Source: Propionibacterium freudenreichii subsp. freudenreichii (GTDB lineage Bacteria > Actinomycetota > Actinomycetes > Propionibacteriales > Propionibacteriaceae). From it: a stretch of DNA of 32,000 nt. Of the stretch, positions 13,758 to 32,000 are shown piece after piece. The notes under the pieces are model-generated. The model had not been told where the DNA came from. It saw nothing but the letters and a program-made list of their open reading frames with translations, and did no database searches. Position 1 is the stretch's first letter. The number at the start of each line of letters is the position of its first letter. The stretch covers positions 1,830,001 to 1,862,000 of the forward strand of contig NZ_CP010341.1 of NCBI RefSeq assembly GCF_000940845.1. The letters are read 5' to 3'. The translations under genes and the position numbers were made by a program.

Positions 13758-14531
13758 ATGAGCAAGCGACCGCACACCATCCTGGTTGTCGGAGCCACGG
13801 GAAGCGTCGGCCGCTTCGTGGTGGCCGAGGCCCTCAAGCAGGGCTATGCCACCCGAGCGTTGGTGCGCAACCTTGACAAGGCGAAGACCCTGCCCGAGGG
13901 TGCGCTGGCCGTGGTGGGCGACCTGACCGACGCCGCCACGCTAGACCGGGCACTTGCCGGAACCGACGCGGTGGTGTTCACCCACGGTTCGAACAGCACC
14001 GAGGAGCAGGCCGAGGCCGTCGACTACGGCGCGGTGCGCTCGGTGCTCACCGCCCTGGGCGATCGTTCGGTGCGGGTCGCCCTGATGACCGCGATCGGCA
14101 TGACCAAGCGCGACAGCATCTACAACAAGGAGAACCACGGACGCGACTGGAAGCGCCGCGGGGAGCGTCTGCTGCGCGCCAGCGGCCTCGAGTACACGAT
14201 CGTGCGTCCGGCCGCCTTCGACTACAACGCCCCCGACGCCCACAAGCTCGTGATGCGCCAGGGCGAGCACCCGAGCAATGGCGGCGTGGCCCGCGAGCAG
14301 ATCGCCCGCGTGCTGGTGGACGCCCTGAGCAACGACGCGGCGCGTCACAAGACCTTCGAATTGCTCGACACCACCGGCGAGGAGCAGGCCGACCTGACGC
14401 CCCTGTTCGCAGCACTGCAGCCCGATGAGCCGGCGGCGGCCGACGCGCCGGGCGACTCCGAGAACCTGCCCCTGTCCGATGAGCCGCAGCGCGTACTCGA
14501 CGACCTGAAGCGCCTCACCGACTACGAATAG
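13758..14531 (+). CDS. NAD(P)H-binding protein (NmrA-like / atypical SDR)
   Basis: The ATG at 13758 follows GGGAGGAACCA. The Rossmann motif ILVVGATGSVGRFV sits at the extreme N-terminus, and the overall pattern is that of the NAD(P)-binding domain family. Confidence 0.8.
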   Translation: MSKRPHTILVVGATGSVGRFVVAEALKQGYATRALVRNLDKAKTLPEGALAVVGDLTDAATLDRALAGTDAVVFTHGSNSTEEQAEAVDYGAVRSVLTALGDRSVRVALMTAIGMTKRDSIYNKENHGRDWKRRGERLLRASGLEYTIVRPAAFDYNAPDAHKLVMRQGEHPSNGGVAREQIARVLVDALSNDAARHKTFELLDTTGEEQADLTPLFAALQPDEPAAADAPGDSENLPLSDEPQRVLDDLKRLTDYE

Positions 14532-14582
14532 GCCGGCGCCTGTGGGCCGGCATCTGCCCGGCTCTGCCGACCAAGAACACCC

Positions 14583-14614
14583 GTGAAGCCGACGTCCCCG
14601 GACGTCGGCTTCAC
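14583..14614 (+). terminator. Intrinsic terminator hairpin (14-bp perfect stem, 4-nt loop)
   Basis: The sequence gtgaagccgacgtc-cccg-gacgtcggcttcac is followed by GTTTCAAG. It lies 52 nt after the SDR-like gene stop. Confidence 0.65.
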
Positions 14615-14747
14615 GTTTCAAGCATGTAACAACTGGATCGCGGCTCTTTCGTGCGCCCCACCGGGCCACTAGCGTTTGCTCGTTGCACGCACACCCCATC
14701 TGTCCGCGTCGGGTTCCCGGCGTTCCACGTACGAGGAGGGCTGAGCC

Positions 14748-22731: not shown

Positions 22732-23688
22732 CTAGTCGGCGCTGATCGCCTGTCCCTTGCCGTCCACCAGCATGCTCAACGCGATGCCATCGAGGATGTC
22801 GGACTCGCTCACCACGAGTTCGGGTGCCCCCACGCGGGAGGCGACCTCCTCGACGATCAGGGCCCCGGCGCACAACACCTCGGCACGCTGCGGCTGCACG
22901 GGCCCCCAGCTGACCACCTCGGACACGGTGGCACCCAGCAGCCGATCAGCCACCTCGTGCACCGCTGCCTGGCTCAACACCGAGCCGTGCACGCGCGAGC
23001 GGTCGTAGCGGCGCAGGTGCTGTGCAAGGGCGGACATGGTGGTCACGGTGCCGGCCACGCCGATGAAGGTGCGGATGTCGGACAGCTCCACCCCGCTCGA
23101 GTCGAGCTCGGAGCGCACCAACTGCCGGGCACGGGCGATCTCGTCGGCCGTGGGCGGGTCAGAGCGCAGGATGCGCTCGCGCAGTCGCCGGGAACCGATG
23201 TTGAGGCTCACCGACGCGTCGATGTGGGCCAGGTCCGCGCCCGCGCCGACGCCGCGCACCAGCTCGGTGGATCCCCCACCGGAGTCCATCACCAACACCG
23301 GGTCGGCCTTGGACCGGATGCCCGACAGGGCCCCCCGGAAACTCAGGTGCGCCTCTTCCTGCCCCGACACCACCTCGGCGTTGATGCCCAGCCGGGCGCG
23401 CACCCCACGGAACAGCTCGTCGCGGTTCTGGGCGTCGCGGGTGGCCGAGGTGGCCACGAAGCGTCCCCGCTCGCAGTCGAGGTCGGCAATGATCTCGTTG
23501 AACTGCTCGCAGGCGTCGAACGCGCGGTTGAGGGCATCGGGGGCGAACAGGCCGGTGGCGTCGACGCCCTGACCCAACCCCACGAACAACAGCCTGCGGT
23601 CGTATTCGTGCAGCGATCCATCGGGGTTGAGGCTTGCCACGAACAACCTCATCGTGTTCGTTCCGCAGTCGATCGCCGCAACCCTCAT
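22732..23688 (-). CDS. ppx: Ppx/GppA-family phosphatase (exopolyphosphatase-like)
   Basis: The N-terminus is the ASKHA-fold motif MRVAAIDCGTNTMRLFVA. Also present are ATSATRDAQN and the DSGGGSTE phosphate loop. The start overlaps the stop of the upstream DUF501 gene by 4 nt. Confidence 0.85.
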   Translation of the reverse strand: MRVAAIDCGTNTMRLFVASLNPDGSLHEYDRRLLFVGLGQGVDATGLFAPDALNRAFDACEQFNEIIADLDCERGRFVATSATRDAQNRDELFRGVRARLGINAEVVSGQEEAHLSFRGALSGIRSKADPVLVMDSGGGSTELVRGVGAGADLAHIDASVSLNIGSRRLRERILRSDPPTADEIARARQLVRSELDSSGVELSDIRTFIGVAGTVTTMSALAQHLRRYDRSRVHGSVLSQAAVHEVADRLLGATVSEVVSWGPVQPQRAEVLCAGALIVEEVASRVGAPELVVSESDILDGIALSMLVDGKGQAISAD

Positions 23689-26602: not shown

Positions 26603-27274
26603 TCAGGACTGTTCGGCGGCCCTGATTTCGGCCTCCCAGCGGCGCAATGCCGCGCGCGTGGCCTGGTCCGCGTCCACTCCGACGCGTTGGGCCCGGCGCA
26701 CGAGGCTGAGAATCTTCTCGCCGGCCTCACGATCACTGATCGAAAGGTCCTCATCCTGGGCCGGCCCCATGTCGGGACCCACGTCGTGCACCCGCTGGGC
26801 CACCTTGGCCGCCCGCGCCAGCGTGGGCAGGGCGTCGGCGATGCCGTCCAACGACGAATCGCGATGCTTGGCGGCCTTCTTGCGTCGTTCCCAGCTGGCG
26901 TCGAGGTCATCGGGCACCTCGGCGTCGCCATAGACATAGGGATGGCGGGCAATGAGCTTGTCGGTGATGCCGCGCACCACCTCGGCGATGTCGTATTCGC
27001 CCTCGTCAGAGGCGATGGACGCGTGGAAGACCACCTGCATCAGCAGGTCGCCGAGCTCCTCGCGCTGGTCATCGGCCGTGCCGACCTCGATGGCGTCCAC
27101 CACCTCGGCCGTCTCCTCGATGAGGTGCTTCACCAGGCTGAGATGGGTCTGCCTGGCGTCCCAGGGGCATTCGATGCGCAGCGTCTGGTTCACTGCCACG
27201 AGCCGGGCGAATTCCTCGCCGGCCCGTTGGGCCGCCGCGGGCAACGAGCCCACATCGTCGGGGCGCTGGTTCAT
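26603..27274 (-). CDS. mazG: MazG nucleoside triphosphate pyrophosphohydrolase
   Basis: The ATG at 27274 overlaps the upstream stop (TGATG). Motifs present: LRIECPWDARQTHLSLVKHLIEETAEVVDAIE, EELGDLLMQVVFHA, ARHPYVYG. Confidence 0.85.
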   Translation of the reverse strand: MNQRPDDVGSLPAAAQRAGEEFARLVAVNQTLRIECPWDARQTHLSLVKHLIEETAEVVDAIEVGTADDQREELGDLLMQVVFHASIASDEGEYDIAEVVRGITDKLIARHPYVYGDAEVPDDLDASWERRKKAAKHRDSSLDGIADALPTLARAAKVAQRVHDVGPDMGPAQDEDLSISDREAGEKILSLVRRAQRVGVDADQATRAALRRWEAEIRAAEQS

Positions 27275-27807
27275 CAGCGGTCGGTGCTCAGCTTCGACAG
27301 TGATCCGGTACCGGCCACGGCAAAGTCGGTGGGGCTCCACGCGCCGTAGCGCGGGTTCACCACGGGGGCCAGCGAGGCGGCGTCCTTCTGCACGTTCTTG
27401 CCCTTGGCCGACAGCACCAGGGCCGTCAGGCGCAGCTGTCCGTCAACCGCCTGGGCGCAGTCATTGTCGGCCAACAGGCCCCGCGCATTGCCCAGGGCCT
27501 GCTTGGCCTGGTCCATGTCGGAATCCGACAGCGTCACGCCGTACTCGCGCGCCAGCTGATCGGCGATCATGCCCTCGCCCACATAGGAGACCACCACGCG
27601 GCGGATGTCCCCGGGCGTGTACTGGCCGGCGCCGCCCCCGGCGTCCAGCATCTTCGAGCAACCGTCGGCGTAACGGGTGATGGTCGACTCGCTGACCCGG
27701 GCACCGTCCAGCTCGATGGCCGTTGCGGGGCTGGGTGAGCAGCCGGCGAACATGGCAAGCGCCGCGGCGGGCACACCAATCCTGACGAGCAGCGAACGCC
27801 TGGACAT
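27274..27807 (-). CDS. Putative lipoprotein (unknown function)
   Basis: The ATG at 27807 follows GAAGGAGTTACTCG. The signal peptide has a lipobox (AALAMFAGC|SPS). The gene sits between mfd and mazG. Confidence 0.7.
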   Translation of the reverse strand: MSRRSLLVRIGVPAAALAMFAGCSPSPATAIELDGARVSESTITRYADGCSKMLDAGGGAGQYTPGDIRRVVVSYVGEGMIADQLAREYGVTLSDSDMDQAKQALGNARGLLADNDCAQAVDGQLRLTALVLSAKGKNVQKDAASLAPVVNPRYGAWSPTDFAVAGTGSLSKLSTDR

Positions 27808-27927
27808 CGAGTAACTCCTTCGACGGGACGGAGCGGCCGCGAGACCGCACAGGCGTGCGCCACCGCGGGGCTGGACGGCGCGAGAGCCGGGCAGCGCATC
27901 TGGCGATGAGCTTAGTGCAGCCGGGGG

Positions 27928-27933
27928 CCTAGC
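27928..27933. repeat. 6-bp target-site duplication CCTAGC (left copy)
   Basis: An identical hexamer sits immediately outside each IS terminus. It fits the NCTAGN target known for IS481. Confidence 0.8.
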
Positions 27934-28930
27934 TGTACTTCCCCGTGACGTTGTGAACGCGGGCTGAGGGAGTCTGGCCGCCGATCCCGGTGTGGGGTCT
28001 GTGGTGATTGTAGTGATGGAGCCAGGTCTCGTAGGCTGCGGCGCGCTCGGCTTCGCTGGCGTAGGGCTTCGCGTAGGCCCACTCGACGGCGAGGGTTCGG
28101 TTGAACCGCTCGACCTTGCCGTTGGTCTGCGGCCGGTATGGCCGGGTCCACTTGTGCTTCACCTCGTCGCCGAGCGCGTCAGCGAAGGCGCCTGACCGGT
28201 AGCAGGAACCGTTGTCGGTCATCACCGCGGTGACTGTGACGCCCAGGCCTGCGAAGAACGCGTTCGCGCGGGTCCAGAACCCCGCTGCGGTCTCTTTGCG
28301 CTCGTCGTCAAGGATCTCTGAGTACGCGATCCGGGAGTGGTCGTCCACGGCGTGGTGCAGATACCGGTAGCCGCGAGAGCCGGCTGCCCCGGCACGGGCT
28401 GCCTTGTCGCGGGCCACTCCCGCGTGACGGTCCTGCATGGATCCGCGACCGTGGGCACGCCACCCGCCGCCGTCGGGGATCCGGCCTTGTTTCTTGATAT
28501 CTACGTGCACGAGCTGGCCCGGCGCGGCGACCTCGTACCGTGTCGGCTTCGGGCGGCGAACCGGCAGCCCGGTGGCCTGGTCGATGTTGATCAGCTTCGG
28601 CATCTTGTATCGGGCGAGCACCCGACCGACCGTGGAACGGTGCAACCGCAGGTGATACGCGATCCGGTGCGGACCCCACCGGCGAGTGAACCGCAACGCG
28701 ACGATCCGATGCTCCGTCTTACGCGAAAGCCGGTTCGGTGACGAGGTGGGCCTCGAACTACGGTCGATCAACGGCAGCCCTGCCCGGTACCTGTCGGCCC
28801 ACCGCTTCACCGTCGCGGGCGAGCACTGGAACCGTTCCGCCGCCCGCCGCAACGACCAGCCCTGTTCCACGACGAGAACAGCAAGACGACGACGCCCTTC
28901 CGGTGTCAAGGGTGCGTTAGCGTGAGTCAC
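27929..28930 (-). CDS. IS481-family DDE transposase
   Basis: The GTG at 28930 follows GGAGGTCTTC. There is an N-terminal HTH (GWSLRRAAERFQCSPATVKRWADRY). The DDE triad contexts are LVHVDIKK, AVMTDNGSCY and PQTNGKVERFNRTL. The ORF reads through the terminal IR, and its TAG (27929-27931) lies in the flanking target duplication. Confidence 0.9.
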   Translation of the reverse strand: MTHANAPLTPEGRRRLAVLVVEQGWSLRRAAERFQCSPATVKRWADRYRAGLPLIDRSSRPTSSPNRLSRKTEHRIVALRFTRRWGPHRIAYHLRLHRSTVGRVLARYKMPKLINIDQATGLPVRRPKPTRYEVAAPGQLVHVDIKKQGRIPDGGGWRAHGRGSMQDRHAGVARDKAARAGAAGSRGYRYLHHAVDDHSRIAYSEILDDERKETAAGFWTRANAFFAGLGVTVTAVMTDNGSCYRSGAFADALGDEVKHKWTRPYRPQTNGKVERFNRTLAVEWAYAKPYASEAERAAAYETWLHHYNHHRPHTGIGGQTPSARVHNVTGKYS

Positions 28931-29026
28931 GAAGACCTCCGTGGTCAGGAGAGTGAGTGTGGTAACCCACATCCTGCCCGGAGGTCTTCGCTACCTCACC
29001 CGTTCACAACCTCCCGGGGAAGTACA
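27934..29026 (-). mobile_element. IS481-family insertion sequence, complete (1093 bp)
   Basis: The terminal inverted repeats are TGTACTTCCCCGTGACGTTGTGAACG (27934 onward) and the reverse complement of the right end, TGTACTTCCCCGGGAGGTTGTGAACG, matching at 24 of 26 positions. The element carries a single DDE transposase ORF and is flanked by 6-bp CCTAGC direct repeats. Confidence 0.9.
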
Positions 29027-29032
29027 CCTAGC
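29027..29032. repeat. 6-bp target-site duplication CCTAGC (right copy; contains the mfd stop codon)
   Basis: This hexamer is identical to the one at 27928-27933. The minus-strand TAG at 29028-29030 terminates the mfd ORF. Confidence 0.8.
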
Positions 29033-32000
29033 CCGCGGCGGCACCGGCGGTTGCCCCCACCGTGTCACCTGCAGTGTTGCCGGCGGTGCCCTGCCGCCTG
29101 GGGGCATCGGGCAGCAGGATGTCGCGCACGAACCCGGAGGCCCAGGCGATCAACTCGTCGCCGATGATGGGCTGGCCACCGACCTTGGCGGTGCGCGGTG
29201 CGGGCACCAGGGCCAGGTTGGCGGCGTTCTTCACCAGGGTGCCCGGGTAGAGCCGGTCGAGGCGCACCCGGCGCGAGTCGGGCAGCGACAGTTCGGTGCC
29301 GTCGGGGGCCCGGCGTCCGGCAATCGGCGCAAACCTGATGGATCGGCCCTGGCTCATCACCTCGGTGAGTCCTGCCTGACGGCACAGCAGCCTGAAGGCC
29401 GCCACCGTCAGCAACGATTCGGCCTGCTCGGGCACGGGGCCGTAGCGGTCCTGCAGCTCGCCGCGCAGCGCCTCGATGTCGTCGGTGCTGGTGACCTCGG
29501 CGATGCGCTTGTACATCTCCAGGCGCAACCGCTCCGATTCCACATAGTCCTCGGGCAGGTGGGCGTTGACGGGCAGCTCGATGCGCATCGGCTTCTCCTC
29601 CTCGCCCGGGCCATCGCCCTTGAACTCGGCGACGGCCTCCCCCACCAGGCGCAGGTAGAGGTCGAAGCCGACGTCGGCGATGTGGCCGGACTGCTCATCG
29701 CCCAGCAGGTTGCCGGCGCCACGGATCTCCAGGTCCTTCATGGCAATCGCCATGCCGGCGCCCAACTCGTTGTTGGCGGCCAGCGCGGCGAGCCGGTCAT
29801 GCGCCGTGGTGGTGAGCGTGCGGTCACCGGGGTACAGGAAGTATGCGTAACCGCGCTCGCGGCTGCGTCCCACCCGGCCGCGCAGCTGGTGCATCTGCGA
29901 CAGGCCCATGTGGTCGGCACGATCCACGATCAGGGTGTTGGCGGTGGGGATGTCCAGGCCGGCCTCGACGATGGTGGTGCACACCAGCACGTCGGCGCGC
30001 CGCTCCCAGAAGTCGACCATCACCTTCTCCAGGGTCTTCTCGCTCATCTGCCCATGGGCGGTGACCACGCGGGCCTCCGGCACCATCTCGCGGATGCGGG
30101 CGGCCACCCGATCGATGCTGGCCACCCGGTTGTGCACCAGGAACACCTGGCCCTCACGTGCCATCTCGCGACGGATCGCGGCCAGCACCTGGCCCTCGTC
30201 ATAGGGGCCGGCGAAGGTGAGCACGGGGTGACGTTCCTCCGGTGGCGTGGTGATGGTGCTCATCTCGCGGATACCGGTCACCGCCATCTCCAGGGTGCGC
30301 GGGATGGGGGTGGCACTCATCGAGAGCACATCGACGTTGACGCGCAGCTTCTTCAGCGCCTCCTTGTGCTCCACACCGAAACGCTGTTCCTCGTCGATGA
30401 TCACCAGGCCGAGGTCCTTGTAGTGCACCTTGGACGACAACAGCCGATGGGTGCCGATCACCACGTCGACCTTGCCCTGCGCCATCTCCTCCAGGGTGGT
30501 GGCCACCTCCTTCTCGGTCTGGAAGCGGCTCAGCTGGGCCACCGTCACGGGAAAGCCCGAGTAGCGCTCGGCGAAGGTCTGGTAGTGCTGCTGCACCAGC
30601 AGCGTGGTGGGCACCAGCACGGCCACCTGCTTGCCGTCCTGCACGGCCTTGAAGGCGGCACGCACGGCGATCTCGGTCTTGCCGTAGCCGACGTCACCAC
30701 AGATCAACCGGTCCATCGGCACGATCTGCTCCATGTCGTGCTTCACGTCGGTGATGCAGGCGAGCTGGTCGGGGGTCTCCTCGTAGCGGAAGGCGTCCTC
30801 CATCTCGTGTTGCCAGGGGGTGTCGGGGCTGAAGGCATGTCCGCGCGAGGCCTGGCGGGCCGCGTACAGCTTGATCAGGCCGGCAGCCACCTGGCGTACG
30901 GCCTTGCGGGCGCGGCTCTTGCGGTGCTTCCACTCGGCGCCGCCCATCTTGTCGAGCGCCGGTGCCTCACCACCCACGTAGCGGGTCACCTGGTCGAGCT
31001 GGTCCATCGGCACATAGAGGCGATCGCCGGGCTGCCCGCGCTTGGACGCCGCATATTCGATCACCATGTACTCACGGGTGGCCCCTGCCACCGTGCGCTG
31101 GGTCATCTCCACGAAGCGTCCGACACCGTGCTGCTCGTGCACCAGGGGGTCGCCGGGCTTCAGCTCCAGGGGCACCACCTGGTTGCGGCGCTTGGTGGGC
31201 ATCTTGCGCGACGAGCGGTCTGCGTTGGGCTGGTTGGTGATGTCGCCGGCGGCCACCAGGGTGAGCTTGAGGTCGGGGGCGCGGAAGCCGTGGCGCAGTC
31301 CCGACAGGATGATGGACACCACATGGGGCTCGGGCTCATCGGGCAGTTCGTCGAGCACGCGGGCGGGCGTGTCATGGTCGCGCAGCATCTCGGCCATGCG
31401 GTTGGCCAGTCCCTTGCCCTCGACGCTGGACACCACGCGCCAACCGCGGGCCAGATCATCGGTCATGGTGGCGATGGCCTTCTCGGCGTCGCCGCGCCAG
31501 CCGGGCAGCGGCTCCATGTCGAGGATCATCTCGGGGATCCCCCCGGCGAACGCCGCGTCGGCGGCCGAGACGGATTCGCCCGCGGATGCGGATTCTCCGG
31601 TGGGGTCCTCGCCCTGCGGGGCACTGTCGGGTGCCGCGGCGAAGGCCGACAGGCTCCACCAGCCCTGGCCGATGTCGAGGCTGTGCTGGCGCACATCGGC
31701 CAGCTCCTGGTACGACGACGCGGCCAGGTCGATGGGGGCCTTGCCGCCCGCGGCAGCAGCCGCCCACGAGGCGTGCAGGAACTCCTGGCTGGTGCGCACC
31801 AGGTCGGCGGCGCGGGTGCGCACCAGCTCCGGGTCGCAGACCAGGGTGAGGGTTTCGGGGGCCATCACGTCGACGAGCAGCTCCACGCCGTCGGCAAGCG
31901 CCGGGATGAGGGCCTCCATGCCCTCCACCGACTGGCCCTGCGAGATCTTCTCCAGCATCTCGGACAGTTCGGGGTGGGCGTCGACGAGGGCGGCCGCGCG
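29028..32000 (-). CDS. mfd: Transcription-repair coupling factor Mfd (N-terminal part lies beyond the window edge)
   Basis: The frame is open from the window end to the TAG at 29028. The RNAP-interacting domain ([15 protein letters not shown]) is present. Superfamily-2 helicase motifs are present ([45 protein letters not shown]), as is the TRG region. Confidence 0.95.

Follow-up and report, generated by a model that had tools for sequence, protein, structure and literature searches.

Here we found that the transposase gene of an ISPfr17-like insertion sequence (IS) of the IS481 family carries no stop codon of its own and ends on a TAG in the flanking target duplication, the second copy of which holds the stop codon of mfd. 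The window, by which we mean the whole stretch of 32,000 nucleotides that was analyzed, is from a Propionibacterium freudenreichii-type chromosome with an already catalogued IS. A stop codon borrowed from the target is already known for several IS481-family members (PMC2516522, PMC6794481), and this aspect is not new here. Judging from the sequences of its relatives, the arrangement is a trait of the IS481 family and not peculiar to this copy.

The borrowed stop codon and the ends of the element

The complete IS occupies 27934..29026 on the minus strand and is 1,093 bp long. Its terminal inverted repeats (IRs) are 26 bp, with 24 of 26 positions complementary (TGTAC...GTACA), and have the consensus TGTACTTCCCCG[T/G]GA[C/G]GTTGTGAACG. 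The left IR (IRL, 29001..29026, minus strand) reads TGTACTTCCCCGGGAGGTTGTGAACG on the minus strand. The right IR (IRR, 27934..27959, minus strand) forms the 3' end of the transposase gene and is coding throughout, specifying …V H N V T G K Y and the A of the last codon. A pattern search for the IRs, allowing up to three mismatches, returned only the two ends of this copy and no further copies in the window, with zero matches expected in shuffled sequence.

On the minus strand, translation of 27860-28000 gives …CAC AAC GTC ACG GGG AAG TAC AGC TAG, or …RVHNVTGKYS*, as the 3' end of the transposase, with no in-frame stop within the right IR. The last Ser codon, AGC, lies at 27934..27932, and its A (27934) is both the final base of the IS and codon position 1. 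The remaining GC of this codon and the TAG (27931..27929) fall in the first copy of the direct repeat, CCTAGC at 27928..27933 (GCTAGG on the minus strand). In vivo, translation would presumably continue to this flanking TAG. The first-pass annotation had described an IS without its own stop that ends at 27934, with the last Ser codon straddling the IS/target junction and the TAG in the flanking CCTAGC; our reading agrees with this base for base, and the empty sites and identical copies described below place the end of the element exactly there.

Insertion at the mfd stop codon

Using the exact product of the neighboring 177-aa gene, we sampled ten P. freudenreichii chromosomes. In nine of them (L092-L100), mfd is followed directly by the 177-aa gene and the site at the mfd stop is empty. 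The empty junction in these nine genomes reads …GCCGCGG-GCTAGG-CCCCCGG…, and in the window the same flanks enclose GCTAGG-[1,093 bp]-GCTAGG. The single GCTAGG of the empty sites fixes the ends of the IS and shows that the insert consists of exactly 1,093 bp and a duplication of 6 bp. The bases at the tips of the IS differ from the bases beside the repeat when the window is compared with the empty sites, so the partition into IS and duplication is unambiguous. Copies of the IS at 27934-29026 with 100% nucleotide identity are present at no fewer than six other sites, all with NCTAGN flanks, and among these identical copies the similarity stops exactly at …GTACA, CTAG excepted. The locus is almost certainly a simple insertion of an ISPfr17-like IS481-family element into a GCTAGG containing the mfd TAG, in a P. 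freudenreichii-type genome. The 6-bp NCTAGN duplication typical of the IS481 family is seen here as CCTAGC on both sides of the element and once in the empty sites, and presumably arose from a staggered cut of 6 bp.

The second copy of the direct repeat, CCTAGC at 29027..29032, holds the mfd stop codon, TAG at 29030..29028. The 3' part of mfd, which encodes the transcription-repair coupling factor (Pfam CarD_TRCF_RID, DEAD, Helicase_C and TRCF), extends over 29028..32000 on the minus strand, and its frame stays open as far as the window goes (position 32000). Because the mfd TAG lies inside its own repeat copy, the insertion leaves mfd intact; the called product of mfd has the same 1,231 aa at the empty sites and at one other filled site. 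It had been proposed that a duplicated tetranucleotide preserves this stop codon. The stop is indeed preserved, but the duplication comprises six bases (NCTAGN, here CCTAGC) and not four. A duplicated stop codon of this kind explains how an IS can sit on the last codon of an essential or conserved gene such as mfd without inactivating it.

Immediately downstream of the IS is the 177-aa ORF (27274-27807, minus strand), which has no Pfam match and begins with a lipoprotein-like signal (…AMFAGCSPS). This gene is kept between mfd and mazG in all ten of the P. freudenreichii genomes sampled. The spacer between mfd and the 177-aa gene is 121 nt at the empty site, and the IS now parts the two by 1.1 kb, with a polar effect on the 177-aa gene being possible.

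The transposase and its family

The transposase CDS is located at 27929..28930 on the minus strand and encodes 333 aa from its likely GTG start at 28930, with its stop in the flanking repeat. The longest ORF runs from an ATG at 28972 to 27929 and encodes 347 aa. We consider GTG 28930 the likely start because a GGAGG Shine-Dalgarno sequence (28940-28936) lies 5 nt upstream of it, the RefSeq members of the protein cluster are 333 aa with the N-terminus MTHANAPL, and the corresponding column is GTG or ATG in 32 of 32 aligned relatives. The 347-aa ORF, which appears in several GenBank records as 'ISCmi2 transposase', probably has 14 residues too many at its N-terminus.

The protein matches NCBIfam NF033577 transpos_IS481 (equivalog) at 344.6 bits against a cut-off of 224, with residues 26-338 covering profile positions 1-283 of 284. 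The next-best family profile, IS3, scores 83 bits and is below its own cut-off. The Pfam domains are HTH_23 and LZ_Tnp_IS481 (28.9 bits vs 22.2) in the N-terminal part, and rve (150-281) and rve_3 (270-335) in the C-terminal half. A DDE triad could be assigned by motif to VHVD158, VMTD253 and GKVE288 in the 347-aa numbering, with a D-to-E spacing of 35. IS481-family elements are about 1-1.1 kb with one transposase ORF and IRs beginning 5'-TGT, and this element has 1,093 bp, one long ORF and IRs beginning TGTACTTCCCCG….

An identical 347-aa product is found on 74 contigs. The 90% cluster that contains the window transposase includes the RefSeq 'IS481-like element ISPfr17 family transposase', and we use the name ISPfr17 as given in RefSeq product names and as a comparison at the protein level. 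In addition to sharing this 90%-identity cluster, the element has a copy with 100% nucleotide identity in P. freudenreichii JS2 (LT576032.1). What differs between ISPfr17 copies is the insertion site, the mfd-stop site being empty in nine of the ten genomes sampled. The P. freudenreichii type strain has 22 ISs, IS481-family elements among them, that are listed in ISfinder under ISPfr names (PMC2909200).

Within the ISPfr17 cluster, near-identical proteins end in KYS, KYT, KYI or KYN. For example, P0005 differs from the window protein by one internal residue and the last residue. Otherwise-identical copies that differ in their last residue thus become separate protein records, with all four endings present in one 90% cluster.

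Survey of related elements

With one genome scanned per species, 80 loci encoding relatives at 66-99% amino acid identity were recovered, 61 of which were non-redundant and had at least 5 nt of 3' flank. CTAG is present at +2 to +5 after the terminal …ACA in 57 of these 61, and the ORF, traced from the last tblastn segment, stops exactly on the flank TAG in 54. The 5' flank contains CTAG in 51 of 54 relatives. The codon straddling the junction, A|NC, is AGC in 25 cases, ACC in 16, AAC in 8 and ATC in 6 (Ser, Thr, Asn and Ile), with GCC and GGC seen once each where the terminal A is mutated. In another twelve contigs the sequence ends precisely at …ACA, before the ORF has closed. A contig break at the edge of a repeat is the usual behavior of assemblers.

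Of 50 copies, 29 have the same hexanucleotide on both sides, and the outer N positions agree in 36 and 35 of the 50. This agreement is far above chance, which argues for a 6-bp duplication, and not a 4-bp one, as the rule. An outer N differs between the two hexanucleotides in the other 21 of the 50 (L001-L080). The complete JS2 chromosome has one mismatched copy, TCTAGC vs GCTAGC (L081, 2941-4045), and mismatches are also seen at L083, L084 and L086. Such mismatches could have arisen by recombination between copies, or where assemblies were joined across the repeat. L082 and L084 have a common 3' flank and different 5' flanks.

Distant members of the family, at 37-50% amino acid identity, show the same …ACA|NC TAG. 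These are from Streptomyces, Corynebacterium (including IS5564), Micrococcus, Burkholderia and Rhizobium (ISRel2). They sit on plasmids, and the plasmid copies L102-L105 and L107 were read only around the annotated stop. In one Rhodococcus copy the stop is TAA (…TACAGT TAA). A transposase stop that comes from the TAG of the direct repeat, as described for several IS481-family members, is likewise present at the window copy.

Four of the 61 relatives (L025, L019, L058 and L073) do not have the CTAG arrangement. L025 has a perfect GCTAAC duplication, and its stop is TAA. In L019 (2505-2523), six extra bases precede GCTAAC, adding two codons before a TAA stop. L058 (2469-2520) has a 5' flank of ACTAGC and a non-CTAG 3' flank, and its ORF continues for 12 more codons to a TAA; this locus looks like a rearrangement. 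In L073 the tip is mutated. Another cluster member, P0014 (372 aa, from a Logan assembly), has a 39-residue extension past …KYT. The right IR of P0014 carries IRL-type sequence (…HNLPGKY). The first-pass annotation had held that the transposase C-terminus depends on the insertion site and had suggested comparing the copies of relatives. That comparison bears the idea out, with KYS, KYT, KYI or KYN set by the flank, a CTAG flank in nearly all relatives, and rare non-CTAG flanks leading to TAA or to an extension of 2, 12 or 39 residues. The length of the C-terminus does vary with the site, though rarely, as the target hardly changes, and which residue comes last is set by the site in every case.

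In L070 from Microbacterium marinilacus, the IRR tip appears to be duplicated in tandem at about 2440-2500 (CACAACCTCATAGGGAAGA CGTTCACAACCTCATAGGGAAGAACA), and a change from G to A within this duplication gives rise to a TAG inside the repeat.

Supply of the stop codon and alternative explanations

The arrangement is best explained in a few steps. The target of IS481-family elements is NCTAGN, and insertion duplicates it in full. Their transposase ORF runs through the right IR without a stop of its own, so that the terminal A of the element (…GTACA) serves as position 1 of the last sense codon. The N and C of the target then complete a codon ANC, for Ser, Thr, Asn or Ile, and the following TAG would terminate translation. 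Because CTAG is palindromic, the TAG is in the right phase for either orientation of the element, and because all six bases are duplicated, a host gene with its TAG in the target keeps its stop. We infer that the lack of an internal stop is a neutral by-product of an ORF that overlaps the IR and a target that is near-invariant.

This reading depends on where the element ends. If the element continued beyond 27929, or if an in-frame stop lay within the IR, the stop codon would be encoded by the IS and the boundary would simply have been mis-drawn. The palindromic CTAG does lend itself to this interpretation, as it extends the apparent IR to 27926/29034 (34 nt). Yet at the nine empty sites a lone GCTAGG is all that separates the flanks, and identical copies diverge exactly after …GTACA, apart from CTAG. 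When copies of one element are compared within a genome, the base after …ACA may be G, C, A or T and is usually the base found in the other flank, and translation of the IR gives no stop. A longer element or an IS-encoded stop is therefore extremely improbable. We also considered a 4- or 5-bp duplication with an outer base belonging to the IS, and rejected it: the outer bases vary among the copies of one element in one genome, they match across the element in about 70% of cases vs about 25-30% expected by chance, and exactly six bases are duplicated relative to the empty site. The borrowed stop could also be a coincidence, if an ORF leaving a mobile element had by luck run into a stop at the first full codon of the flank. 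Taken alone, one copy with a stop no more than two codons from the junction would be nothing unusual. Against this, in 54 of 61 independent relatives the ORF ends on a TAG at this same offset, as it does in members from other phyla at 37-50% identity, and CTAG is about 10-fold under-represented in the window, which leaves chance a negligible prospect.

A different possibility is that the missing stop is an adaptive control, in which off-target copies or an excised junction form would produce an extended and probably less active transposase, so that only correctly targeted copies would stay active. In line with this, off-target or rearranged copies do gain 2, 12 or 39 residues, the arrangement is conserved from Actinomycetota to Pseudomonadota, and the variant targets that are seen (CTAA in L025 and L019; CCTAAC for IS481a, PMC3053399) still supply a TAA. 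The near-invariant target and the overlap of CDS and IR explain this conservation equally well, however, by removing selection for an internal stop. The last residue also varies freely among S, T, N and I, suggesting the extreme C-terminus is not critical, and at only 4 of 61 the non-CTAG copies are too rare for their integrity to be compared. We regard adaptive control as unlikely. The related proposal that the target-supplied stop acts as a landing-site check, giving a transposase of native length only at (N)CTA(G/A) sites, is likewise unlikely. If it were true, off-target or rearranged copies, as well as read-through across an excised IRR-IRL junction, would result in extended, less active proteins.

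An opposite insertion in JS18 and the scarcity of CTAG

P. freudenreichii JS18 (LT576034.1, L091, 1275-2380) also carries this IS in the GCTAGG of the mfd stop, with an identical 6-bp duplication, but there the whole element is inverted. The JS18 and window copies differ at 3 of 1,093 positions, and both of the non-identical IR tips are flipped together with the body. In JS18 the transposase gene converges on mfd and ends …AAG TAC ACC TAG (KYT*), such that the transposase and mfd stop codons overlap on opposite strands within the palindrome CTAG. These observations are best read as two independent hits on the mfd-stop site, one in the window and one in JS18. Inversion in situ through the IRs was considered as an alternative and is less likely, as the IR tips are flipped with the body and there are three internal differences, and it is further disfavored by the window copy being 100% identical to a JS2 copy at another location.

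The window contains 9 CTAG sites (5862, 8362, 13585, 13941, 14669, 21040, 22732, 27929 and 29028) vs about 95 expected from base composition, an approximately 10-fold under-representation; GATC occurs 239 times. Three of the eight distinct CTAG sites are the stops of long minus-strand ORFs, namely mfd and the predicted ORFs 13941..14699 and 22732..23688. Gene-terminal TAGs may thus account for a good part of the targets on offer. A further reading, of low probability, is that the element is channeled to gene-terminal TAGs in high-GC genomes depleted of CTAG, as the two apparently independent hits on the mfd stop in opposite orientations would suggest, and this would make it a largely gene-sparing parasite.

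Comparison with known elements

NCTAGN is the target consensus of IS481 elements and is duplicated on insertion (PMC3053399, PMC2516522, PMC6794481). A copy-paste mode of transposition has been proposed for the family (PMC6794481). In the prototype, IS481 of Bordetella pertussis, the target is likewise a duplicated 6-bp NCTAGN, and the CCTAAC site of IS481a from this species (PMC3053399) parallels the GCTAAC of L019 and L025. ISLxc2 and ISLxx4 of Leifsonia xyli have their stop codons inside the NCTAGN insertion site (PMC2516522). These belong to the IS481 family and have the stop in NCTAGN as here, although they are different elements, and the ORF of ISLxc2 contains, after 111 nt, a further in-frame stop that is absent from the window element.

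A close parallel is ISRe46/TnRErm46 of Rhodococcus equi, where the transposase gene stops at the TAG of the right direct repeat (DR) and parB at the TAG of the left DR (PMC6794481). The DR is again NCTAGN, and parB, with its stop preserved, is the exact counterpart of mfd here. The two systems differ in that ISRe46 mobilizes a 6.9-kb cargo transposon with erm(46), whereas the window element is a plain IS without cargo. For annotation, gene callers and IS-boundary tools should expect the transposase genes of IS481-family elements to overrun the element by five bases.

The transposase leader

In the window, mfd is followed directly by the IS, and both have the same orientation. A consensus scan of 27800-29200 did not return a sigma-70-like promoter, and the only terminator-like sites were two weak ones on the non-coding strand. 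The transposase leader contains a hairpin (28929..28991, minus strand) that pairs the GGAGG and the first two bases of the GTG start with an upstream anti-Shine-Dalgarno sequence (GAAGACCUCC / GGAGGUCUUC). The predicted fold has a free energy of -64.7 kcal/mol (z = -4.9). The 10-bp core of the hairpin is conserved across 32 relatives, and three of its pairs show compensatory changes on both sides, from A-U to G-C. The leader hairpin plausibly blocks or limits translation of the transposase from transcripts that read through from mfd.
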